Notes: generated by a model not told the origin, from the letters alone. Shown: positions 7,892-49,295, counted from the first letter of the stretch. The stretch is DNA of 64,000 bases from Candidatus Babeliales bacterium (GCA_023133515.1 JAGLWI010000005.1:70548-134547), one strand, 5' to 3'. Numbers and translations are program-made.

Positions 7892-8665
7892 ATGAAAATG
7901 AAAAAAATAGTATTTTCAATTATATTGCTATCATTGGTTTCTCTGGGGTTTGTGAAATGTAAAAAGAGTAATGATCTTGCCCAGCAATCACTTGACGCAC
8001 TTGCATTAAAGGTGGCAGAATTGGAGGGTATGCTCAAAAAAATAGAAAACGAAAAGAGTAAAAGTTCAGATAAGAGAGTTTCTTCAGACCTTATCAATCA
8101 GGTTCTTAATAACGCAAAATATGTATCACAATTTCTTTTTGATCAGTTTAAATTTTTTATGGATAAAGGAGATAAGGTTATTTCTAAAAAGTTTTTCATA
8201 GGAGTAATGTTTCTTATTGGGCCTCTTTTGTTGCTTGAAAATAAAGTGCTTGGACTTGGCATGACAAGTGCCATTATAAAAAAGATCACAGGAATTTTTG
8301 TACATGGAGGAAAGGAAGTAGCAAAAGACGTTGTTGATGTGGTAGTTGATGAAGTCAAATCGGATCTCTGGTTTGTTGCAAAGTTAGGGGGAATTTGGGT
8401 TGGTATTAAAGCAGCAGGATCTTTTGCGTCTTCGTTAGCGACGAAGATCGGGGGCAATGCTGGTGAAATTTTGACCAAACATTCCACATTAAGTAAATTA
8501 TCTGCAACAACAGGAGCTGTTATTGCTGCTGTTACGGCTCCAAAAGCACTGGTTGTTACTGTTCCATTATTTTTATTGCACAGATATTATTCTCATAATC
8601 ATGTAATCCCAAATTGGCAGGAAGCGTACCAGGATTTTGGACTTAATTATATTTTTGGATCTTAA
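7892..8665 (+). CDS. orphan signal-anchored protein, module gene 1 (copy A)
   Basis: 257 aa. Hydrophobic N-terminus MKMKKIVFSIILLSLVSLGFVKC, coiled-coil segment, and Gly/Ala-rich hydrophobic C-terminal half (GGIWVGIKAAGSFASSLATKIGG). Paralog of 15961..16623. The true start may be the second ATG at 7898. Confidence 0.6.
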   Translation: MKMKKIVFSIILLSLVSLGFVKCKKSNDLAQQSLDALALKVAELEGMLKKIENEKSKSSDKRVSSDLINQVLNNAKYVSQFLFDQFKFFMDKGDKVISKKFFIGVMFLIGPLLLLENKVLGLGMTSAIIKKITGIFVHGGKEVAKDVVDVVVDEVKSDLWFVAKLGGIWVGIKAAGSFASSLATKIGGNAGEILTKHSTLSKLSATTGAVIAAVTAPKALVVTVPLFLLHRYYSHNHVIPNWQEAYQDFGLNYIFGS

Positions 8666-8772
8666 GAAAGCCTTGCTATTGTTGATGTACTTTTCTAAAT
8701 TGTACCTTACTATATAATATAGTTTGTAATAATATGTTTTTTAGTTTTTTAAAAGTACAAGGAAATTAAAGC

Positions 8773-9381
8773 ATGGAAAAACATATTTTGAAAGTGCTTA
8801 TGTTTGTCATTTTTAGTATGGTGTTTACTGTCAATCAATATCCACAAGATTTTCAATATCAGGATTTATCTTTTAAAAATATGATCTCTAAAGATTTAAA
8901 TTTTTTCTATTTTTATAAAACACACTTATACAAAGCAGATTTTCGATTTTCAGATTGTTACAAAACAGATTTTCGATGTGCTGATATGAGATATACTAAT
9001 TTCCGTTTTGCAAAATTACATGGAGCTAAATTACAGAAAGCAAATTTGCATGGGGCTGATTTTACTCAGGCGGATTTGGAGAACGCAGATTTAACAGGAG
9101 CGAAAATTGAAGGGATTATTGTAGGAGAGTATACCAATTTAGATGGAGTTAAGGGAATTCCAAAAGAAATATTAGACAAGCTAAAACAAACCATAAAAGA
9201 GAAGACTGTTCTTGCTGAAGAGGAGGAACGTAGACAGATAGAGTTTATCAAAAGCATTCCTGATAGGATCTTTTATTATCCAGAAAAAATTGTTTCTTTT
9301 TTGATTTCTGTTCCAAAACATGTTGCTTTAAAAATCATCGATCGGTTTTATTCTAAACAAGAAATTGTGGAAGAGTCTTGA
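8773..9381 (+). CDS. pentapeptide-repeat protein with signal-like N-terminus, module gene 2 (copy A)
   Basis: 202 aa. Repeats such as ADFRF SDCYK TDFRC ADMRY TNFRF AKLHG AKLQK ANLHG ADFTQ ADLEN ADLTG. Hydrophobic N-terminus. C-terminal motif VSFLISVPKHV is shared with copy B. Confidence 0.8.
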   Translation: MEKHILKVLMFVIFSMVFTVNQYPQDFQYQDLSFKNMISKDLNFFYFYKTHLYKADFRFSDCYKTDFRCADMRYTNFRFAKLHGAKLQKANLHGADFTQADLENADLTGAKIEGIIVGEYTNLDGVKGIPKEILDKLKQTIKEKTVLAEEEERRQIEFIKSIPDRIFYYPEKIVSFLISVPKHVALKIIDRFYSKQEIVEES

Positions 9382-15744: not shown

Positions 15745-15960
15745 GCTTTCGCCAAAGATTTCGTCTTCGCATAAAACTTCAACAAACAAAACCTGTCAAG
15801 CAAACTAACTATCCAAAAGTCCAAATAGAACAAATTATAATTTTCTAAATAAACTTCTTCTCTACAAGTAAAACCTACCCCCATTTTTCTTTCATATAAA
15901 CCAAGAGTAGAATAATAGTAAAGCTAAGGTTTATTCGAAAATATCTAAAATATGGGGGAT
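15745..15960 (+). promoter_or_regulatory. decayed family-1 repeat unit plus conserved 5' leader of secreted module, copy B
   Basis: GCTTTCGCCAAAGATTTCGTCTTCGCATAAAACTTC... aligns with 7674-7891 at roughly 90% by eye. TATAAT about 15834-15839, C5 15878-15882, G5 15954-15958. Confidence 0.6.
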
Positions 15961-16623
15961 ATGAAAATGAAAAAAATAGCATTTTCAATCATTTTGTTAT
16001 CATTTGTTTCTTTTGGTTTGATTCAATGTAAAAAAAATCCAATTGTAGCCAAAGACATTTCTCAACAATCTCTTGATGAACTTAAAAATAAAATGTCTGA
16101 ATTGAAAAATATGTTTAAAAAAGCAGAAGCTGAGAAAACAAAAAATCCAACAAAGAAAATTTCTGAAAAAATTCAATATCAAATTCTTGATAAAATAAAA
16201 AATATATCACATTTTCTTTTTGATCAGCTTAAGTTTGTAGCAGATAAAAGTGATAAAATTATTTCTAAAAAGTTTTTTATAGCTGCAATGTTGATAACAG
16301 CACCGGCAGTTTCTCTTTACTGCAAATTTTTTAATCCAAATTTTATTAAAAAGATAATAGAAAAAATTTCTGCTATAATTACGCATAAAGCTGGAGACGC
16401 CGGGGCATCTGCAACTAAGGGCTTCTTTAAGGGAATTGCGGAAATGGTATGGAATAATAAATTAATAACAGCATTGGTTGTTGGAGGATATGTAACGATA
16501 ACGGTTACTACAGGGATTGTAAGTGTTTTAGGTGGAAAAATGTTTGAAGTACTTGGTAGTGAATTAGGGAGTTATGTAGCCAAAAAACTACTGCCCGCAG
16601 TAGTGGAAGCGGCAGCGAAATAG
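15961..16623 (+). CDS. orphan signal-anchored protein, module gene 1 (copy B)
   Basis: The ORF track starts at 15952 (MGDMKMKK). By alignment with copy A the likely start is ATG 15961 (MKMKKIAFSIILLSFVSFGLIQC). Shares FLFDQLKF..DK.DKIISKKFFI with copy A, and the C-terminus diverges. Confidence 0.6.
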   Translation: MKMKKIAFSIILLSFVSFGLIQCKKNPIVAKDISQQSLDELKNKMSELKNMFKKAEAEKTKNPTKKISEKIQYQILDKIKNISHFLFDQLKFVADKSDKIISKKFFIAAMLITAPAVSLYCKFFNPNFIKKIIEKISAIITHKAGDAGASATKGFFKGIAEMVWNNKLITALVVGGYVTITVTTGIVSVLGGKMFEVLGSELGSYVAKKLLPAVVEAAAK

Positions 16624-16639
16624 AAAGGCAAGTGAAAAA

Positions 16640-17215
16640 ATGAAAAAAATATTTTTCATATTTGTTTTGATTATCTATTTATGTGGAGGTTCTGCTTACA
16701 CTTATGATATAAACGCCTTAGAGGAGGCGACGTCTGGATCTAAATATTTACGCTATAGCCATTTATCAGGGGCACCTCTACGCCGGATGTTTTTGTGGCA
16801 TGTTGACTTGTCCCATTCAGATTTATCATATGCTAGGTTGTCTGGGGCAGAATTACCTTATACAGATCTATATCGTGTAAACTTATCTCATGCAGATTTA
16901 TCACATGCGTTGTTGGTAAGAATAAAATTACATGAAACAAAAGTTGAAGGGGCAAACTTCTATGGAGCGATTGGCCTTACAAACGTTAAAAAGAAATATC
17001 TACGAGAACATGGTGCTATAAATGTTCCTGAGGATCGTCCAGAAGAAGAAAAAGAAATGGAAATTGTATTTAAAGCGGGGCCTTGGATTACAGGCCCACT
17101 GAATATTTCAAAAAAAGTATTATCATTTATTTTTCTAACTATTCCCAAACACATCAAAAAACAATTAATTGATAGTTGTTTTTTCGTTAAAAAAATAAAA
17201 GAAAAATCTAAATAA
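16640..17215 (+). CDS. pentapeptide-repeat protein with signal-like N-terminus, module gene 2 (copy B)
   Basis: 191 aa. Repeats VDLSH SDLSY ARLSG AELPY TDLYR VNLSH ADLSH ALLVR. C-terminal LSFIFLTIPKHI. Confidence 0.8.
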   Translation: MKKIFFIFVLIIYLCGGSAYTYDINALEEATSGSKYLRYSHLSGAPLRRMFLWHVDLSHSDLSYARLSGAELPYTDLYRVNLSHADLSHALLVRIKLHETKVEGANFYGAIGLTNVKKKYLREHGAINVPEDRPEEEKEMEIVFKAGPWITGPLNISKKVLSFIFLTIPKHIKKQLIDSCFFVKKIKEKSK

Positions 17216-37645: not shown

Positions 37646-37833
37646 TATTTTTTCGATCGCTCATTCTTTTTAATTTTACAAATCTTTATTAATCAAACAA
37701 AAAGATAAAATAAAATTATAAAAATTAAAATTATATTATTAACTTTTATAAAAAGTTTTACAAAATCAAACTTTTTTATATGATTAGCTATTGGTTTTTA
37801 AAAACAATAAGTTTACTTTTTATAGGAAATATT

Positions 37834-38553
37834 ATGAAAAATGTTTTATTTCTTTCATGTGTTATTTTTACAACTAATATATGTGCAACGATAGATAATC
37901 TTCAAAGTCAAAAAGATATACCAAATATTAATAATAATCTTATTCAACAAGATAAATCTAATATTATTTTAAAAAAAATTGATGACGGCAAAAAACAACA
38001 AGACAAAGTAAATACATTTTTTAATCAAGAAGAACTAAGTGAATTAATAGCTCAAAAACTACAAGTTGCAGAAAAGGAAAAAAAAGAAAAAACGCAAGCT
38101 ATTATAAAATCTTTACGTAAATTTAAAATAACCGGCATAGCAACTACGGTTGACCCAAATTTAGCATTAATCTTTGATATTCAAAATCCTATTCTCCAAG
38201 TAATCTACAAAAATTCTATTGGAGAAATTAAAACAAGGAAATACCAGGCATTGGTAAAATCAATTGGCTTAAAACTAGAATTTGATTTTAAAATTGATCT
38301 TATATTTATAGTTGGTACAGATTTTAATTTTTATGATTCAGACAAAACAATAGAATTGGGACCTGGAATAGATTTAAAAACCAACATTATCGATTTTACT
38401 TATGCATCTTTTAACAACCATGATGGAGGAATGATAATATTAGGAATTCCCATATTAGGAGAATTATCAAATTTTCTAACCTATGGAATTAGTTTATGCC
38501 TTGTAGGAATAAGCTACGTTAGTGGTGGATACCTAATACCTATAGAAAGTTAA
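37834..38553 (+). CDS. hypothetical secreted protein
   Basis: The ORF track starts at 37780. ATG 37834 gives the signal-like MKNVLFLSCVIFTTNICA. No family recognised. Confidence 0.45.
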   Translation: MKNVLFLSCVIFTTNICATIDNLQSQKDIPNINNNLIQQDKSNIILKKIDDGKKQQDKVNTFFNQEELSELIAQKLQVAEKEKKEKTQAIIKSLRKFKITGIATTVDPNLALIFDIQNPILQVIYKNSIGEIKTRKYQALVKSIGLKLEFDFKIDLIFIVGTDFNFYDSDKTIELGPGIDLKTNIIDFTYASFNNHDGGMIILGIPILGELSNFLTYGISLCLVGISYVSGGYLIPIES

Positions 38554-42323: not shown

Positions 42324-43823
42324 ATGCAAGATAGGCGCAATTTTAACAATATTAAAAAAAATGAAAAAGTTATAAATCCTAATAATAATGAAAAGAGATT
42401 TAAAACCACTCCTAATCTGCGCCCAACAAGAATCTTTATATTGGATACAAATGTTTTATTGCATGATAGCGATGCCATATTTGAATTTAAAGATGTTGTA
42501 CTTGGAATTCCTTTTGTCGTTTTACAAGAACTAGATACATTCAAAAAAAACCAAGGAGAACTAGGTCGCAACTCAAGAGAAGTTATCAGAATATTAGATG
42601 AATTAAGAAACAAGGGCTGCTTGAACAAAGGAGTTGAAATAAGCTCAGAAACTGGCAGCATTCTAAAAGTTCTTCCTACACCAGCATTCCAACCAACTCA
42701 GGAAATGTATGGCGATGTTGTAGATGATCTAATCCTAAAAACAGTACAAAATTTAGTCAAAGAAGGTTTTGATGCCACACTAATTACAAAAGACATCAAT
42801 TCAAGGGTCAAAGCTGATGCTATGGGTCTTGAGGCCGAAGATTACATAAAAGAAAAAGTCTCATCTGTCGAATTTTATAAAGGATGGATCAAAATCAATT
42901 TATCAGCAAATGAATTGCGAAAAATAACCATCAATAAATTACCTGAAATACTAAAACAAAAAAAAATCAAATTAGAAAAACTTGCTCCCAATGAATTTAT
43001 TGTTGTAGAAAGCGAAAATAATCCAGAAAATTATCATCTCTTCAGATTTTTAGGTGGAACCAATTTTATCTTAGTAAAGAATCCAAAAATCATCGCCCAC
43101 TTTGGAGCAAGAAACGTACAACAACTAATGGCTCTAGATCTTTTGAGAGATGACAATGTCAAAATAATCTCACTCGTAGGTCCTGCTGGTACAGGAAAAA
43201 CTTTTTTGACTCTTCTTATTGGTCTACAAAAGGTAGCAAAAGAACATTTATACAAAAAATTTTTAATATCACGCCCAGTTGTTGCCCTTGGAGCAGACAT
43301 TGGTTATCTACCAGGTGAATTACATGAAAAATTACGTTATTGGATGCAACCGGTTTACGATAATTTGGAATTAATTTTTAGCCAGCTTGGCGAAAAAGAA
43401 ATTGAATATCTTGCAAACAAAAAAGAACGACAGGCTCTAAAAAAACATTTAAGAGATCGTTACATAAAAGATCGTCATCAAGAAATATCAAATGTGGATA
43501 TATTGCAAGAAAAAGGAATTTTGAGCATGGAAGCTATAACTTATATGCGAGGTCGCTCCATTCCATATCAATTTATTCTTATCGATGAAGTTCAAAACTT
43601 AAATCCACATGAAGTAAAAACAGTAGTAAGTCGCGCAGGAGAAGGCACAAAAATCATACTTGCCGGAGACCCCTTTCAAATAGATTCTCCGTATCTTGAT
43701 TTTAGTAGCAATGGACTTACAATTACAACAGAAAAGCTTAAAGGACAATCAATATTCGGATCTGTATTTTTAGAAAAAAGTGAAAGAAGCAAAGTTGCAA
43801 AACTTGCAGCAAAACTTTTATAA
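42324..43823 (+). CDS. PIN-domain + PhoH-like ATPase (YlaK/PhoL type)
   Basis: 499 aa. PIN ILDTNVLLHD. P-loop GPAGTGKT. IDEVQN Walker B. Confidence 0.8.
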   Translation: MQDRRNFNNIKKNEKVINPNNNEKRFKTTPNLRPTRIFILDTNVLLHDSDAIFEFKDVVLGIPFVVLQELDTFKKNQGELGRNSREVIRILDELRNKGCLNKGVEISSETGSILKVLPTPAFQPTQEMYGDVVDDLILKTVQNLVKEGFDATLITKDINSRVKADAMGLEAEDYIKEKVSSVEFYKGWIKINLSANELRKITINKLPEILKQKKIKLEKLAPNEFIVVESENNPENYHLFRFLGGTNFILVKNPKIIAHFGARNVQQLMALDLLRDDNVKIISLVGPAGTGKTFLTLLIGLQKVAKEHLYKKFLISRPVVALGADIGYLPGELHEKLRYWMQPVYDNLELIFSQLGEKEIEYLANKKERQALKKHLRDRYIKDRHQEISNVDILQEKGILSMEAITYMRGRSIPYQFILIDEVQNLNPHEVKTVVSRAGEGTKIILAGDPFQIDSPYLDFSSNGLTITTEKLKGQSIFGSVFLEKSERSKVAKLAAKLL

Positions 43824-43938
43824 ATCATATTAATTTCAATCTAAACAAAAAACATGTATTTAAGATATTTTTCTATACTACTAGAAATAAAATAGAATAT
43901 TATCATTACTAAATCAGACTAAACCAGCACATCCCATT

Positions 43939-43966
43939 TTTAAACACAAAATTAAAATGATATACT
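43939..43966 (+). promoter_or_regulatory. extended -10 promoter of tandem-family gene 1
   Basis: TTTAAA-N16 (ending TGA)-TATACT. Shares the AAATTAAAATGATAT block with the promoters at 46846 and 47850. Confidence 0.45.
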
Positions 43967-44045
43967 CTTATTTAATGACAATAAAAAAATAAAATTTGTC
44001 ATAAAAATGTGAGGTTATTTTTCATTAAAAAACGGAGGTTATATC

Positions 44046-45404
44046 ATGAAAAAACCAATTATTCTTTCTTTATTAATATTTTCTTTTACTTTTCAAAATA
44101 ATATAAAACCTATTGAACTTTCTAATATACCAGCTTCACCATTTTCTTATGCTATAGAGAATGGAAACAATATAATTAAAAATGGAATATGGTTAACAAA
44201 AAATTTATTAGAAAAAACAAAGAATAAACACCTTTTAGCAACAGCAATATTAGCTCCATGGCCATCTATAGGAAAATCATTAAGTCATCTATACTATGCA
44301 GGAAAATATTTAATAAAAGATAACAATATCAGTCAAAGTGCAAAAGAATTTAAAAGATCACTATGGCCAACATTAACTTCTTTTTTGGGAACAAATTCTC
44401 TTTTAAAATACGGAATGTATACTCCTTCAAATTTTTCACTTGATAGTATCATCTGGACTCCATTATGTTACAGCAGTTACTTTAACAACATGTCTAACAA
44501 TATAAATATGCTTGAAAAAATAGCTTCCAAAGTAAAAAACATAATTCCTTCTACTTTTCAAAAATCTTTAAAAACATCTGAAAAAAAAGAAACTGAAAAA
44601 GAAATTCAAAAAAATACAATTGAAACTAATCATATTGCTGAAATAGCTCATATTGATGAAGCAACAAAAAAAGCCACTTTAAATACAAAAAAAGAGACTA
44701 TTGAAACTTTATCACTATTTTCTTTGCCTTCTAAAACACTAAATACTGCTTCTTCTATTGTAAAATTTCCATTTCAAAGAACAATAAAAACATTTACAAA
44801 TATCAAACACATGGGACAAGCTTTATGGAATAAAGAATGGAAAGTTGCAGCCAAAAAATTAGGATTCGCCTCTTTAAATGCTTTTTTAGCATTTGTTAGT
44901 GCTTATGCAATGATCTATGGTGCTGATAAAGCTCTTCTTTTATTAGCAAACAAAGGATTAATGCCATCTACATTTCTAGGATACAAAGCAGGTTCCATCA
45001 ATCTAATCCCTACAAAAATTAATACATGTGCATCAAATTTTTATGGCAATTTGACAAAATTTTGTAAGAATTTATATCCAGCACAATTACTAAAAAATAA
45101 AGTAACTTTAACAAAACCAGATCCTACTTACTTATGCAAATATTTAAAAGAAAACGGCACAGAAAAATTCATGGGCGAATTATCTTCAGATTTTTATAGG
45201 CTTAAAATAAAGTCTTTAGAAATTTTAAAAGGAATAAAAGATAAAGGAATATTTCAAATACAAAATTCTGAAACAATAATCAAAAACGTTGCAAAAGAAG
45301 CAACTGAAGCTACTAAATTGGCTAAATATATGCTAAATGGAGACTGCTCAGAAAATGTAAAAGTGGTTACTGGTATTGCACAAGACTTAGGCTTATTACC
45401 ATAA
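44046..45404 (+). CDS. orphan secreted/membrane protein, tandem family member 1
   Basis: 452 aa with a signal peptide. Family motif AFVSAYAMIYGADKALLLLANKGLMPSTFLGYKAGS. Confidence 0.55.
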   Translation: MKKPIILSLLIFSFTFQNNIKPIELSNIPASPFSYAIENGNNIIKNGIWLTKNLLEKTKNKHLLATAILAPWPSIGKSLSHLYYAGKYLIKDNNISQSAKEFKRSLWPTLTSFLGTNSLLKYGMYTPSNFSLDSIIWTPLCYSSYFNNMSNNINMLEKIASKVKNIIPSTFQKSLKTSEKKETEKEIQKNTIETNHIAEIAHIDEATKKATLNTKKETIETLSLFSLPSKTLNTASSIVKFPFQRTIKTFTNIKHMGQALWNKEWKVAAKKLGFASLNAFLAFVSAYAMIYGADKALLLLANKGLMPSTFLGYKAGSINLIPTKINTCASNFYGNLTKFCKNLYPAQLLKNKVTLTKPDPTYLCKYLKENGTEKFMGELSSDFYRLKIKSLEILKGIKDKGIFQIQNSETIIKNVAKEATEATKLAKYMLNGDCSENVKVVTGIAQDLGLLP

Positions 45405-45416
45405 CATCTACCCCTT

Positions 45417-45444
45417 TTGAAATATAAAATTAGCCTGATATAAT
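45417..45444 (+). promoter_or_regulatory. extended -10 promoter of tandem-family gene 2
   Basis: TTGAAA-N16 (ending TGA)-TATAAT. Confidence 0.55.
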
Positions 45445-45499
45445 TGTTATTAATAAGAGGTTGGATCATTTTTATAACAAATGTAAATGGAGAAAAACC

Positions 45500-45919
45500 A
45501 TGAAAAAAACAATCTGTACAGGATTAGCAATTCTCCTTTTGGCTGTAGCATCAGTCAAACCAGAATCTAAAGATGATAAAAATTCAAAATCTGGAATCAC
45601 TTCAGCCATAGTCACAACATTAGCTTATCCTTTTAAAAAAGGAGCTTCTACTTTAAAATTTGCTACAAACACAATACAAGATCTTATATCATTCAATACA
45701 GCTAACAATCTCTTTTTGACAGCAAAAGAAGCAACTAAGTTATCTTTGTATTTATTGGCAGTTGTTGCAACCGTTTATGGTTTAGATGCTGCTATTTTAT
45801 GGACAACAAAAATTGGTATTCCAAAAACAATATTTAACACATATGAATTTGGAACAATTTATAACAAACTCACACCAACAATTAAGCAAAGAATCAAATT
45901 CTTGCCTAAATGTTTTTAA
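45500..45919 (+). CDS. orphan secreted/membrane protein, tandem family member 2
   Basis: The ORF track starts at 45461. ATG 45500 follows GGAG and gives the signal-like MKKTICTGLAILLLAVASV. Motif VVATVYGLDAAILWTTKIGIPKTIFNTYEFGTIYNK. Confidence 0.6.
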   Translation: MKKTICTGLAILLLAVASVKPESKDDKNSKSGITSAIVTTLAYPFKKGASTLKFATNTIQDLISFNTANNLFLTAKEATKLSLYLLAVVATVYGLDAAILWTTKIGIPKTIFNTYEFGTIYNKLTPTIKQRIKFLPKCF

Positions 45920-45997
45920 TAATAATTTTACTGTTAAATTTTTTAATAATGCGTCTTATTTAATTTAATTAACACTTTTTAATATGGGGGGATAATC

Positions 45998-46735
45998 ATG
46001 AAAAAGATGATTACCACAGGATTAATGGTTTGTATGTTAGGAGTAGGGGTAGGATCAGGAGCAAACTCAACATCATATAATAACGTCCCTACAAACACAA
46101 TTGAATTTGCTGATTGGGAATATTATGGAAGTAAATACTTTAATGATTCTGACACAAAAGAAAACAACAAATGTTCTAGTTTTCTAAAAATATCAGCATT
46201 AATAGTAGGATCTGTTGCAGCAGTTTATGGTATGGATTATGCACTTACATGGGCAACTAAAATTGGTCTTCCAGGATCTATTAAGAGTTACAAATTTGGA
46301 ACACTTTGTAATAAAACAAAAGAAGTAATTCAAAAAGCAATTGCAAACTCTCCAAAATTACTCGAATATATTAAACGTCTTCCAGGAAAAATAAAATCCG
46401 TTCCACAACTCATCAAAGAAATTCCTAACTTTGTAAAAAATGTTATTTTTAAAATAACAAAAAATAGTAAAAAACTTCATAATTATTTAATCAAAATTAT
46501 TATAGATGGTTTAAAAGATATAGTAATTATTAAAAATATTGTTATGCAACACATGAAAAATGCAGGAGAAAAAATAATTGCTATACCTGGACAATTAAAA
46601 GCTTTACCAGCTTTAATCATTTCATTCCCAAGATCAACTTATAAAACTTATAATATTGGAAAAGAAGCACAAAATAGTATTTGCTGGAATTTCTGTTCTT
46701 TTTTACCAACACTTAAATGGTTTAATAAAAAATAA
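45998..46735 (+). CDS. orphan secreted/membrane protein, tandem family member 3
   Basis: 245 aa. Start context AATATGGGGGGATAATCATG. Motif VAAVYGMDYALTWATKIGLPGSIKSYKFGTLCNK. Confidence 0.6.
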   Translation: MKKMITTGLMVCMLGVGVGSGANSTSYNNVPTNTIEFADWEYYGSKYFNDSDTKENNKCSSFLKISALIVGSVAAVYGMDYALTWATKIGLPGSIKSYKFGTLCNKTKEVIQKAIANSPKLLEYIKRLPGKIKSVPQLIKEIPNFVKNVIFKITKNSKKLHNYLIKIIIDGLKDIVIIKNIVMQHMKNAGEKIIAIPGQLKALPALIISFPRSTYKTYNIGKEAQNSICWNFCSFLPTLKWFNKK

Positions 46736-46769
46736 TTAGAATTTAATACAATACTATTAACTAAAAAAA

Positions 46770-46793
46770 GGGCTGATTTTATCAGTCCTTTTT
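46770..46793 (+). terminator. rho-independent terminator
   Basis: GGGCTGAT-TTT-ATCAGTCC stem followed by TTTTT. Confidence 0.6.
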
Positions 46794-46845
46794 AGTATCA
46801 ACTCATTACAAATTTTTATATTCTAAAACACATCCAAAGATTCTC

Positions 46846-46873
46846 TTGAAATTTAAATTTAAAATGATATTTT
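46846..46873 (+). promoter_or_regulatory. extended -10 promoter of tandem-family gene 4
   Basis: TTGAAA-N16 (ending TGA)-TATTTT. Nearly identical to 47850-47877. Confidence 0.55.
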
Positions 46874-46926
46874 TAATTAACGTGTTTTAAATAATATTAA
46901 TTTTTATCTTTTACAGGAGGAATAGA

Positions 46927-47745
46927 ATGAAGAAATTTTTTTCTATCACATTGGCCATATTTCTGGCATTTTCAAGTTCAACAAATATTCTTAAGTCTTT
47001 ACCAAATGATGAAATAAATCCTCAAGAAGAAAAAGTTTCAGTTTTTATAGAAGAATTATCACAAGTTTGTAATGAATATAAAAAAGTTATAAATAAAGAC
47101 AAAGATGTTTTGCAAAAACGCAAAGAAGTTTTAAAGGAAGCAAGACAAACTCTTGCAGAACTTAAAAAAGAATTAAATAAATGCAAAAGATCAGGAAAAC
47201 CTGAATTAAAAAATCGCATCATAGATGCAGCAATAGGTGTTGCAATAGTTGTTGGTGTACTTTACAGTGTAGATTGCGCAATTGGAGCTTTAGAGCATGC
47301 TGGTCTTATTAAAGAAGTAACAATGTCTTACAAAGTTGGAACATTATATAAATATTCATTGGGTTTTATAATAACAGGAATAGCCTACTTTGGAAGAAGT
47401 ATAGCTTTACCTATTTTGAAATGTTTTTTTATAGATATTCCTGTTAAATTATTTAAAATTTTGTTCAGTGTTCCATCAAAAGCAAAGAATTTGTTATTCA
47501 GAAAAACTATACCACAAGAAGGATTAACTTTCGAAGATAAAGAAATATGTGATTTAAAAGATGGTCCTGTAATAAACCCATTGGAAGAAAAATTATACCC
47601 AGTAATAAAAGAACCAGCAACTCCAAAAATATGCAACAGTGATGATCTAAACGCTTTCATTAAAGACTACTTAAACATTAATGGTTGCACCTTAAATAAA
47701 AGTACACTAAGGAAGCTTATAAAAAACTTAAAAACAACATTTTAA
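46927..47745 (+). CDS. orphan secreted/membrane protein, tandem family member 4
   Basis: 272 aa with an AGGAGG SD, signal peptide and coiled-coil. Motif VVGVLYSVDCAIGALEHAGLIKEVTMSYKVGTLYK. Confidence 0.6.
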   Translation: MKKFFSITLAIFLAFSSSTNILKSLPNDEINPQEEKVSVFIEELSQVCNEYKKVINKDKDVLQKRKEVLKEARQTLAELKKELNKCKRSGKPELKNRIIDAAIGVAIVVGVLYSVDCAIGALEHAGLIKEVTMSYKVGTLYKYSLGFIITGIAYFGRSIALPILKCFFIDIPVKLFKILFSVPSKAKNLLFRKTIPQEGLTFEDKEICDLKDGPVINPLEEKLYPVIKEPATPKICNSDDLNAFIKDYLNINGCTLNKSTLRKLIKNLKTTF

Positions 47746-47770
47746 TATAAAATACGTTATTAAAATAAAA

Positions 47771-47805
47771 AAGAGGCCTATTTTTTTAATAGGTCTCTTT
47801 TTTAT
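47771..47805 (+). terminator. rho-independent terminator
   Basis: AAGAGGCCTAT / ATAGGTCTCTT stem followed by a T-run. Confidence 0.65.
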
Positions 47806-47849
47806 TTTATAATCTTCTTAATAAACACAAAAAACTTAAAAAATTAATC

Positions 47850-47877
47850 TTGAAATTTAAAATTAAAATGATATTTT
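47850..47877 (+). promoter_or_regulatory. extended -10 promoter of tandem-family gene 5
   Basis: TTGAAA-N16 (ending TGA)-TATTTT. Confidence 0.55.
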
Positions 47878-47923
47878 CATATCAAAAATAAAAACTTTTT
47901 TATCTTTAATGAAAGAAAAAATA

Positions 47924-48523
47924 ATGAAAAAACTTTTCTTCTATTTTCTACTTTGCTATTTAATCACATCAAACTCAATACAAATTCTATCGTCAATGGG
48001 AAAAAATAATCTAAAAAGTGGGAAAAAAGCCTTATTAAAAAATATGCAGGAGACTTTAAAAGAAAGAAAAAAGCTTTTAGAAACAGATAAAAATGATTTC
48101 ACAGAAGATAAAAAAGTTTTAATCGAAGCAAAAAAAATAATTCTAAAACTAAATAATCAACTAGAAAATCCTAAAAATACAACTAATTTAAAATTAAAAA
48201 AAAGAATCGCATCTGCAATTCTCTATGTTTTGTTAGCTATTTCAATAAGTTATGGAACCAATTTTGCTATTAATCTTTTAGAACAAACAAAAATTATACT
48301 TATAGATAACGTTTTCAAATCAATGATATTAAATTATTCAATCTCAGCTTTATTAAGCTATCCATTAACTTTTATAATATCTAAAGTTCCTTTAATAACA
48401 AAATTCGTAGAATCTTTGCCAAAATCACTTTTAAAAAAAATAACTAATAAAAAACATACATTTTTTGATGAAATAATTAGATCTTGGGAAATATCCAGAA
48501 CTATATCTCATATGGCAAAATAA
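47924..48523 (+). CDS. orphan secreted/membrane protein, tandem family member 5 (divergent)
   Basis: The ORF track starts at 47909. ATG 47924 gives MKKLFFYFLLCYLITS. Coiled-coil similar to member 4. Weaker motif LLAISISYGTNFAINLLEQTK. Confidence 0.5.
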   Translation: MKKLFFYFLLCYLITSNSIQILSSMGKNNLKSGKKALLKNMQETLKERKKLLETDKNDFTEDKKVLIEAKKIILKLNNQLENPKNTTNLKLKKRIASAILYVLLAISISYGTNFAINLLEQTKIILIDNVFKSMILNYSISALLSYPLTFIISKVPLITKFVESLPKSLLKKITNKKHTFFDEIIRSWEISRTISHMAK

Positions 48524-48565
48524 TGGATTATACGAAAATACGAAAACTCAAATAATCTTACAAAG

Positions 48566-48596
48566 ACGCTCATCCTGAGCTTGTCGAAGTGAGCGT
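48566..48596. repeat. GC-rich hairpin element between convergent genes
   Basis: ACGCTCA-TCCTGAGCTTGTCGAAG-TGAGCGT (7-bp stem). A related decayed copy lies at about 13044-13068. Confidence 0.6.
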
Positions 48597-48635
48597 AATT
48601 TATATTAAAATTAAATACACCACGCTTTTTGTGCC

Positions 48636-49295
48636 CTATTTTATATAGCTTAAAAATTTATCAACTGTTTGTTTTTGTGTCATATTAGAATTATCAATTA
48701 TTATCGAATCTTTTGAAATAATTAAAGGAGCAACATCACGCTCCATATCTCTTTTATCTCTTTTCTCAAGTTCTATTTTAACTTCTTGTAAATTTAAGTT
48801 TAAATTAACCCGTTTTTTGTCTTCAAATATTCTTTTTGCCCTTATATCAAGATTTGCAGTAAGAAAAAATTTATAATCTGCATTTTGAAAAATAACTGAC
48901 CCACAATCTCTACCATCTGCAACAATATCATGTTTTTTTGCAATGCTTCTTTGTAACTCAATTAATCCCTCTCGAACTTCTTTTTTTGCACTCATAATTG
49001 AAGCTTGTTGCCCTAAAACCATAGTATATAAATTTTTAGTTAAATTTTTCCCATTAAAAAAAATCAGTGAGGCTTGGCCATCATACTCATAAGAAATTTT
49101 TTCAATAAATTTTAAATCTTTTAAAATAGTTTTATCTACATCAGAAAGTTTTTTCCCTAAAATGTTTAAAAAAATATAAGCAACTGCACGATAAAGTAAT
49201 CCTGTATTTAGATAATAAATATTCAATCTTTTACAAATCTCTTTGCCCACACTACTTTTGCCACTTCCTACTGGTCCATCAATTGTAATAATCAT
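48636..49295 (-). CDS. cmk: cytidylate kinase
   Basis: 219 aa. ITIDGPVGSGKSS P-loop and a DGRD motif. Confidence 0.85.
   Translation of the reverse strand: MIITIDGPVGSGKSSVGKEICKRLNIYYLNTGLLYRAVAYIFLNILGKKLSDVDKTILKDLKFIEKISYEYDGQASLIFFNGKNLTKNLYTMVLGQQASIMSAKKEVREGLIELQRSIAKKHDIVADGRDCGSVIFQNADYKFFLTANLDIRAKRIFEDKKRVNLNLNLQEVKIELEKRDKRDMERDVAPLIISKDSIIIDNSNMTQKQTVDKFLSYIK

Follow-up and report, generated by a model that had tools for sequence, protein, structure and literature searches.

A Diverged Tandem Array of Putative Exported Membrane Proteins in a Positionally Conserved Locus of Babeliales

The 64,000-nt stretch of Candidatus Babeliales bacterium analysed here (GCA_023133515.1, JAGLWI010000005.1:70548-134547; hereafter the window, with a GC content of ~28%) carries five consecutive genes, g1 to g5, between the genes for a PhoH-like ATPase and for cytidylate kinase (cmk). 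On the evidence of profile comparisons, these genes are diverged tandem paralogs of one undescribed family restricted to a single clade of Babeliales (phylum Dependentiae); to judge from gene order in relatives, they occupy an old, positionally conserved locus with birth-and-death turnover, rather than a recent insertion or a novelty specific to this genome. The family evolves several-fold faster than the genes that flank it, namely 3-10 times in terms of dN/dS (omega, the ratio of nonsynonymous to synonymous substitution rates). The account of its function that we favor, with belief and doubt in near balance, is that of a Sec-targeted, membrane-anchored, and rapidly diversifying family of the envelope or host interface. 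What is new here is a family with a well-defined motif, a promoter block specific to the array, and a fixed address in the genome; its kind, that of an amplified, fast-evolving family of exported or membrane proteins, is already familiar.

Dependentiae are widespread and almost entirely uncultured, and the machinery with which they interact with their hosts is little understood; to our knowledge, all the cultured members of the phylum are intracellular parasites of protists. The family can be tracked by its motif, its address upstream of cmk, its copy-number turnover, its rate acceleration, and a candidate common promoter. Comparative and population work on host adaptation in Babeliales could thus use it as a marker, and it is also a target for localization. 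Should it prove to be merely an accessory envelope family, the gain would be one of routine annotation.

A Family Defined by a Conserved Transmembrane Core

All five open reading frames (ORFs) proposed in a previous sequence-only reading of the window are present on the plus strand (44046-48523), and NCBI calls the same genes in the metagenome-assembled genome (MAG) GCA_030631185.1, annotated as 'Candidatus Babeliales bacterium', in which contig DAOVLQ010000003.1 encodes five identical proteins. The product of g1 (44046..45404, 452 aa) has a signal-like N-terminus, a unique domain of ~250 aa, a transmembrane (TM) helix with the conserved core (aa 277-323, nt 44874-45014), and a 130-aa tail. 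That of g2 (45500..45919, 139 aa) combines a signal-like N-terminus with a short variable domain, TM helix and core (aa 79-123, nt 45734-45868), and a short tail, an architecture to which g3 (45998..46735, 245 aa; core at aa 63-106, nt 46184-46315) adds two runs of hPxxhKx repeats. In g4 (46927..47745, 272 aa) the signal-like N-terminus is followed by a helical hairpin or coiled-coil (aa 31-89), a basic cluster, TM helix and core (aa 99-142, nt 47221-47352), a second hydrophobic segment (aa 145-176), and a tail; g5 (47924..48523, 199 aa) has the same layout with a degenerate core, SYGTNFAINLL, at nt about 48209-48361. Ribosome-binding sites of the GGAG type precede g1-g4. For g5, the NCBI call starts at 47909, giving 204 aa; we favor 47924 because an MKK N-terminus is family-wide.

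By hydropathy, every array member starts with a signal-like segment and has one strong hydrophobic helix, at the end of which stands a YGxD motif; the core, (I/V)YGxDxAL...(I/L)GLP...YxFGT, spans this helix and the juxtamembrane region. Two pairs of paralogs are clear, g2 with g3 (E 1e-12, 32% identity across the whole of g2) and g4 with g5 (E 1e-15, 27% identity over 183 aa). The links across pairs, and those of g1, are confined to the TM and core block and are individually weak (hhalign P 0.003-0.007), each comparison aligning identical columns of the block. When hidden Markov models (HMMs) of the block are built with members left out, the omitted proteins rank at the top among the 281 six-frame ORFs of the window (E 6e-6 to 4e-2): The model of g2 and g3 retrieves g4 (E 0.0015) and g1 (E 0.0036), that of g1, g4, and g5 retrieves g2 (E 6.5e-6), and that of g1-g4 retrieves g5 (E 0.04). 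Searches with jackhmmer started from g2, g4, or g5, with relatives added, cross the subgroups and unite all five proteins, which score between 1e-18 and 6e-43 against a 29-member family HMM. The hydrophobic helix and conserved block that the sequence-only reading had considered common to the array are thus borne out by the leave-one-out models, by jackhmmer through relatives, and by the profile search described below; the leave-one-out and family models also give the block its statistical support. In g5 the block is weak, and the membership of this gene rests mainly on its relation to g4. Two other ORFs of the window, at 7892-8665 and 37780-38553, were considered as additional paralogs and rejected, for their match to the HMM is confined to its signal-peptide part.

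Within the family, g4 and g5 are most closely related to each other, which implies at least one lineage-specific duplication. In turn, g1, g2, and g3 each have closer kin in other genomes (the core of g1 is nearest to L006a and P0019), and therefore at least three subfamilies predate this genome.

When 1.84 billion representative proteins were searched exhaustively with a profile, 26 proteins were obtained at E<=1e-3, the five of the array included; the ten that were looked up are all singletons from metagenomes or MAGs. Only this search widened the family: An 8-sequence profile led to 5 proteins, in a word-indexed search of 5.8 billion proteins g1 and g3 each matched only themselves, and a back-translation scan of metagenomes with the subfamily alignment produced 600 pattern matches and 0 confirmed relatives, the alignments of the whole family being too variable along their length to yield a pattern. 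Neither the five proteins nor 28 family members have a match at curated cut-off in Pfam-A, NCBIfam, PHROGs, or PADLOC; the best match to PDB sequence profiles has E 0.31, which is noise, and the best Foldseek match against PDB has E 5.4, likewise without significance. The earlier statement that no known family is recognizable therefore holds in Pfam, NCBIfam, PHROGs, PADLOC, and PDB. To call the proteins orphans is correct insofar as they lie outside every curated family, and incorrect insofar as ~26 representatives exist in related genomes or metagenomes. Likewise, the signal-like N-termini and TM helix stand as read by hydropathy only, whereas the description as single-pass fits the one strong TM helix of all five proteins and fits less well the second, moderately hydrophobic segment of g4 and g5 (aa 134-158 in the latter).

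The layout is common to all members: MKK and a signal-like segment come first, and a variable region leads to a hydrophobic helix that has (I/V)YGxDxAL at its end, after which come (I/L)GLP, YxFGT, and a tail. The N-terminal hydrophobic region extends for 12-19 aa after MKK and is followed by small residues, in a Sec-like manner. The variable domain is hydrophilic and of ~10-260 aa, often with a cluster of Lys and Arg before the TM helix, while YxFGT starts a polar helix and the tail after it varies between 37 and 184 aa. Many tails carry consecutive 7-residue hPxxhKx units, as in g3 (aa 128-148 and 196-216, nt 46379-46441 and 46583-46645), P0013 (195-222), P0010 (124-151), and P0015 (304-324). 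These runs comprise 3-4 units downstream of the core, for example LPGKIKS VPQLIKE IPNFVKN, and are modelled by AlphaFold2 (AF2) as low-confidence helix. The AF2 models were computed from a 28-sequence alignment and have a low overall confidence (mean pLDDT 61-62). The core of g3 is confidently predicted (pLDDT 76-91), with a helix at 57-88, a loop at 89-101, and helices at 102-131; that of g4, likewise confident, has the helical hairpin at 31-89, a helix at 92-124, a loop, and a helix at 139-155. A C-terminal motif of the type h-h-x-S/T-h-P-K, which might have linked the tails of the family to two pentapeptide-repeat proteins, was discarded as too weak (3 matches vs 0.5 expected, one of them in a spurious ORF).

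An Old Locus with Variable Content

The slot in which the array lies is bounded on the left by the gene for the PIN/PhoH-like ATPase (42324..43823, plus strand; Pfam PIN_4 and PhoH) and on the right by cmk (48636..49295, minus strand; Pfam Cytidylate_kin), both conserved; further out are ThrRS, Nth, and XerC upstream and RecJ and LysRS downstream. The order XerC-Nth-ThrRS-PhoH-[slot]-Cmk-RecJ-LysRS is kept in 16 related Dependentiae loci that were recovered via PhoH orthologs of 47-72% identity (loci of relatives are given below with the prefix L). The position immediately upstream of cmk is taken by family genes in L005, L006, L022/23, L025, L037, and L038. Besides the five of the window, the slot holds one family gene in each of L005, L006, and L038, two in L022/L023 and in L025/L026, and at least one in L039; in L037 three genes are present, and at least two of them belong to the family. 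In L008 (four genes) and L009 (two genes) the slot is filled by more distant arrays, the proteins of which combine a signal with a TM helix and have family HMM values of 1e-7 to 2e-3. The upstream regions of the first two genes of L008 are near-identical, from which it follows that the co-duplication of promoters recurs.

In other relatives the slot lacks the family. The gap between PhoH and Cmk is empty, with 39-60 bp, in L012-L014, and in five loci it holds minus-strand genes for UCH (PF00443) or Metallophos (PF00149) proteins instead (L007 11490-15678, L011 11525-13111, L016 11490-12980, L017 11596-12891, and L040 11549-13045). These eukaryote-like proteins, which resemble C19 deubiquitinases and PPP phosphatases, respectively, have N-termini that by eye are hydrophobic and signal-like. 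Since the slot may be empty or otherwise occupied, the family is dispensable. A few members have other locations: In L016 and L040 they lie between Nth and ThrRS, and in L021, L024, and the P0019 contig they form part of other tandem sets. Overall, copy number in relatives ranges from 0 to 5, and the slot usually follows phoH.

Two pairs resembling toxin-antitoxin systems were also recognized by eye near these loci. One, in L008 (14909-15441, minus strand), consists of a RelE-like gene and a small antitoxin-like gene; the other, in the Cmk-RecJ gap of L013 (12278-13026, plus strand), of a nucleotidyltransferase and a HEPN-like gene.

Evolutionary Rate

Rates were compared by pairwise Nei-Gojobori (NG86) estimates of dN/dS between genomes that share the locus. 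For the L016/L040 pair omega is 0.03 for ThrRS, 0.04 for PhoH, 0.09 for XerC, and 0.15 for Nth, as against 0.22 for the family member and 0.29 for the slot phosphatase. For L022/L039 it is 0.11 for PhoH and 0.62 for the family member at equal dS, and in L008/L009 the flanks lie at 0.05-0.09 and two array genes at 0.51 and 0.87. The earlier characterization of the family as fast-evolving is therefore correct, orthologs having dN/dS values of 0.2-0.6 vs 0.03-0.15 in the flanks. Between the window and its nearest relative, flanking proteins are 60-72% identical and family proteins 30-44% identical over partial lengths.

Change is unevenly distributed along the protein in the orthologs L022_1 and P0018 of the L022/L039 pair: Their signal peptides are identical, the region between signal and helix has 24% identity with insertions and deletions, and helix, core, and tail together have 85%. 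Correspondingly, omega is 0.86 for the ectodomain and 0.36 for the remainder. The 24 signal-peptide codons of this pair (L022 2531-2602 and L039 3656-3727) have a dS of 0.06 vs 0.34 for the whole gene, next to an ectodomain that has been rewritten. This near-identity at the 5' end may reflect recombination or conversion, or small-sample noise.

Promoter-Like Blocks and Predicted Transcription Units

Four of the five genes are preceded by promoter-like blocks on the plus strand. P1 (43939..43966; TTTAAA-N16-TATACT, with TGA before the -10) lies 80 nt upstream of g1 and forms direct repeat D4 with P4; P2 (45417..45444; TTGAAA-N16-TATAAT with TGA, an 11/12 match to the consensus) begins 13 nt past the stop codon of g1. 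P3 (46846..46873; TTGAAA-N16-TATTTT with TGA) forms direct repeat D1 with P4 (47850..47877), the two being the same at 27 of 28 positions within intergenic DNA that does not align. The pattern TTKAAA-N13-TGATAT, which was designed after the sites had been seen, has four matches per 64 kb vs 0.37 expected, all on the plus strand and 47-80 nt upstream of g1, g2, g4, and g5; an unbiased repeat finder independently ranks the promoter blocks as the top direct repeats. As the proteins of g4 and g5 are 27% identical and yet the 28-nt block, spacer included, is near-identical, constraint or gene conversion would seem to have acted upon a functional element.

Features resembling intrinsic terminators on the same strand are a hairpin followed by a T-run after g3 (46760..46796; dG -16.2 kcal/mol, z -5.7) and a hairpin with A-tract, stem, and T-tract after g4 (47762..47808; dG -24.3 kcal/mol, z -8.9; inverted repeat I3). 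The sequence-only reading had predicted extended -10 promoters before g1, g2, g4, and g5, a near-identical block before the last two genes, and individual terminators for two genes, and at the level of sequence signals all of this is found. Its further proposal of independent transcription units needs to be qualified: The signals split the array into three or four units, but g3 has no block of its own. Because g3 is separated from g2 by a 78-nt gap without a hairpin, the two genes probably form one unit, and read-through from g1 into g2 is possible because no terminator follows g1. The predicted units are thus probably P1-g1, P2-g2-g3-terminator, P3-g4-terminator, and P4-g5, and we infer that they are probably co-regulated, since they all have an extended -10 promoter in which the spacer is conserved. 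The exact block has 10 matches in metagenome contigs, 0 of them near a family gene.

A further element, CCC-(N)-TTTTG(A/C)AA, lies before or across the -35 of g1 and g2 (43933-43945 and 45411-45423). In L005, L006, and L022 it stands ahead of the family gene that comes first after phoH, where it makes up the tail of the terminator of phoH. From this it would seem that the promoter region of g2 was derived by duplication of the ancestral upstream region proximal to phoH. In the convergent intergenic region of g5 and cmk there is a GC-rich hairpin (ACGCTCA...TGAGCGT, 48561-48598), the folding of which is not significant (z -1.2); it may terminate both genes.

Function and Alternative Explanations

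How could these features be combined? In the envelope and host-interface account, tandem duplication in this genome would have carried the promoter along with the gene, and the products, inserted by the Sec system, would be anchored in the envelope of the parasite by the conserved TM and juxtamembrane module, their cleavage, topology, and localization being putative. The same module may also provide a docking or oligomerization site for a conserved partner, and the fast-changing flanking domains would then present variable interaction surfaces within an accessory repertoire presumed to face the host. This account fits the phylum because ORFan proteins with signal peptides, tandem duplications, and islands of secreted or membrane proteins have been reported for it (PMC4378268, PMC6561590). 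Babela massiliensis is rich in tandem duplications and contains islands in which secreted and membrane proteins are encoded, and it also has secreted C19 UCH peptidases noted as candidates for host manipulation (PMC4378268); in Chromulinavorax, 44% of coding sequences carry signal peptides, a set enriched in ORFans (PMC6561590). The sequence-only reading had likewise regarded the family as an exported one at the host interface; the assignment of the bacterium to Babeliales, the orphan and fast-evolving nature of the family, and the effector-type genes in the slot of relatives speak for that part of its proposal, while its analogy with inclusion-membrane proteins does not hold.

Several observations weigh against this account. 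Signal peptides and topology are based on hydropathy and inspection. In proteins with a cleaved signal and a stop-transfer anchor, the positive flank is normally C-terminal, on the cytoplasmic side. Here the count of Lys and Arg within 25 aa of the conserved helix averages 4.2 on the N-terminal vs 1.9 on the C-terminal side, and 21 of 28 members are richer on the former (basic clusters are found, for example, at aa 85-98 of g4, nt 47179-47220, and at aa 88-97 of g5); in L024_2 only ~7 residues, including KKR, separate signal and helix. This bias is opposite to the classical type I expectation, and the simple topology may be wrong. In a diderm, moreover, a signal followed by a stop-transfer helix would place the variable N-terminal domain in the periplasm, away from the host. 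Family genes of relatives lack the promoter block in their upstream regions. All omega values are below 1 and are also compatible with relaxed constraint, and in the orthologs L016a and P0005 (L016/L040) the ectodomain has an omega of 0.11, the contrast indicative of hypervariability being absent. Finally, only a type II secretion system (T2SS) has been reported in the phylum, for the cultured Babela massiliensis (PMC4378268), and neither a type III nor a type IV system (T3SS, T4SS) has been reported in Dependentiae (PMC4378268, PMC4776705). For diderm bacteria with just this T2SS on record (PMC4378268, PMC4776705), direct contact of the proteins with the host is conjectural.

Other routes of surface anchoring were considered and rejected. 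On inspection, the five N-termini have no lipobox of the form [LVI][ASTVI][GAS]C; the only Cys in their hydrophobic regions, that of g3 (LMVC), is preceded by a non-canonical residue. Sorting signals for sortase or exosortase (LPXTG, PEP-CTERM, GlyGly-CTERM) do not agree with a tail of 37-184 aa and a basic cluster before the helix, and no NCBIfam sorting domain is matched. Type IV pilins and T2SS pseudopilins are excluded by the position of basic cluster and helix, 60-275 aa from the N-terminus, by the lack of GFxxxE, and by the lack of a Pfam N_methyl match.

The explanation that survives best among the alternatives, possible if on the whole improbable, is that the family consists of housekeeping or accessory envelope proteins without a role in the host: They would be bitopic proteins of the inner membrane, docking through the module to a conserved machine, and linker-like domains under relaxed constraint would account for their speed of change. 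Retention in the inner membrane of a diderm is indeed predicted where a Sec signal precedes a strongly hydrophobic helix, and the stable position among housekeeping genes in many genomes, the conservation of intramembrane Asp and Gly and of the GLP/YxFGT motif, dN/dS values below 1 everywhere, and the T2SS as the one system known in the phylum (PMC4378268) all agree with this explanation. It accounts poorly for a slot that is empty in L012-L014 and taken by unrelated genes in five other loci, for a copy number of 0-5, for omega values 3-10 times those of neighbors, and for a family confined to one clade.

Doubtful, in our opinion, is the idea that the proteins are membrane-inserting effectors functionally similar to the chlamydial Inc proteins: Once exported by Sec, the Babeliales proteins would be released through the T2SS or in outer-membrane vesicles and would enter a host membrane with their basic cluster and TM helix, and the promoter would mark an infection-stage regulon. 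Insertion in the host membrane, if true, would explain the inverted charge bias, which is the reverse of that of inner-membrane type I proteins; the second hydrophobic segment of g4 and g5, the presence of effector-type UCH and PPP genes as alternative occupants of the slot in relatives, the conservation of the array-specific promoter block, and the vesicle budding reported in Chromulinavorax (PMC6561590) point in the same direction. The TM helices, with Kyte-Doolittle values of 1.7-2.3 over 19 aa, should however arrest in the inner membrane, g1-g3 have no bilobed hydrophobic domain, and T3SS and T4SS are not on record in Dependentiae (PMC4378268, PMC4776705). It is similarly unlikely, then, that the family represents a Sec-dependent counterpart of Inc-type or transmembrane effectors, one that would interact with a conserved partner of host or bacterial origin through its GLP/YxFGT module and its proline heptads.

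Much less probable is a derivation from a mobile element, prophage, or defence island, with the genes as holin-like, immunity, or toxin-associated small membrane proteins. The content of the slot does vary, and the toxin-antitoxin-like pairs seen by eye lie near related arrays (the RelE-like pair of L008) or in the neighboring Cmk-RecJ gap (the nucleotidyltransferase and HEPN pair of L013). Nevertheless, a check of the window detected no tRNA, integrase, transposase, or flanking direct repeats bounding the slot, the GC content of the array (0.26-0.27) is near that of its surroundings (0.23-0.32 across the window), no PHROG or PADLOC match was obtained, and the position has been held across a deep divergence, with flanking proteins 47-72% identical. 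Just as improbable is it that hydrophobic helices encoded by AT-rich ORFs of low complexity resemble each other by chance, which would leave two unrelated pairs and a singleton: Cross-pair blastp values (E 0.003-0.2 in a 5-sequence database), hhalign probabilities of 5-10%, and the degenerate block of g5 would allow it, but independent comparisons all align the same columns, leave-one-out models place the omitted members first, jackhmmer joins the five through members of L005, L006, and L016, motif and layout recur in 26 database proteins, and the members are positional homologs in one slot.

Other Exported-Type Genes in the Window

Elsewhere the window contains further genes of exported type. 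A two-gene module is duplicated at 7892-9381 and 15952-17215, with a lipoprotein-like orphan followed by a pentapeptide-repeat protein with a signal peptide. The orphans, of 257 and 223 aa, share the N-terminus 'MKMKKI.FSIILLS..S.G...CKK', a coiled-coil, and a hydrophobic C-terminus rich in Gly and Ala; their partners match PF00805 (E 1e-19 and 1.5e-13). At 34747-35376 (plus strand) a protein of 209 aa combines a signal-like N-terminus with a dual-specificity or tyrosine phosphatase domain (PF22741, E 2.5e-18; DSPc, 1e-10; HCKSGVDRTG), making it a candidate exported phosphatase. A 155-aa repeat protein with a signal peptide, encoded at 27222-27689 (minus strand), contains RDGSGPFRDGRGPNPDCPLKSVNQDTDEK twice and further RDG.GP units, and has no match in Pfam.

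Comparison with Known Systems

The sequence-only reading had likened the array to inclusion-membrane proteins, and with the Incs of chlamydiae it does share the character of a large, fast-evolving, clade-restricted set of small membrane proteins defined by a hydrophobic module rather than a domain; in addition, g4 and g5 have two hydrophobic segments ~25 aa apart, the second being weaker. However, Incs are defined by type III secretion signals as well as by a bilobed hydrophobic domain, in which two TM helices are connected by a short loop, and they need a T3SS, whereas here the N-termini are of Sec type, g1-g3 and most family members have one strong TM helix, and there is a conserved sequence motif that is absent from Incs. 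The analogy thus fails on the features that define the Incs.

With the island families of Babela massiliensis (Pagnier et al. 2015, PMC4378268) the array has in common the phylum, tandem duplications, signal and TM proteins without known domains, and co-location with genes of the ubiquitin system (C19 UCH) and other eukaryote-like genes. In contrast to those islands, the present locus is positionally conserved across many genomes and not strain-specific. The family and its motif are not described in the Babela massiliensis paper (PMC4378268), and none of the 26 matches of the profile search named this organism.

The remaining comparison is with the immunodominant proteins of phytoplasmas, the genes of which lie in conserved synteny. 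In phytoplasma proteins of the Amp and IdpA/VmpA types the same order of parts is found, a cleavable Sec signal, a variable hydrophilic domain, and a hydrophobic anchor (PMC10003417). The likeness extends to high divergence with elevated dN/dS, to a fixed position among housekeeping genes, and to the bacterium itself, which in both cases is obligately intracellular and has a reduced, AT-rich genome. The sequences are unrelated, and the differences are substantial: Whereas the anchor of Amp is at the extreme C-terminus, here 37-184 aa follow the helix and the TM and juxtamembrane module is the conserved part; there are up to five tandem copies; the cell is diderm, so that the variable domain would face the periplasm; and positive selection is not demonstrated (omega 0.1-0.9). 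By layout and evolutionary behavior, and without homology, the variable membrane proteins of the phytoplasma Amp/IdpA types nonetheless constitute the closest analogue of the Babeliales family.

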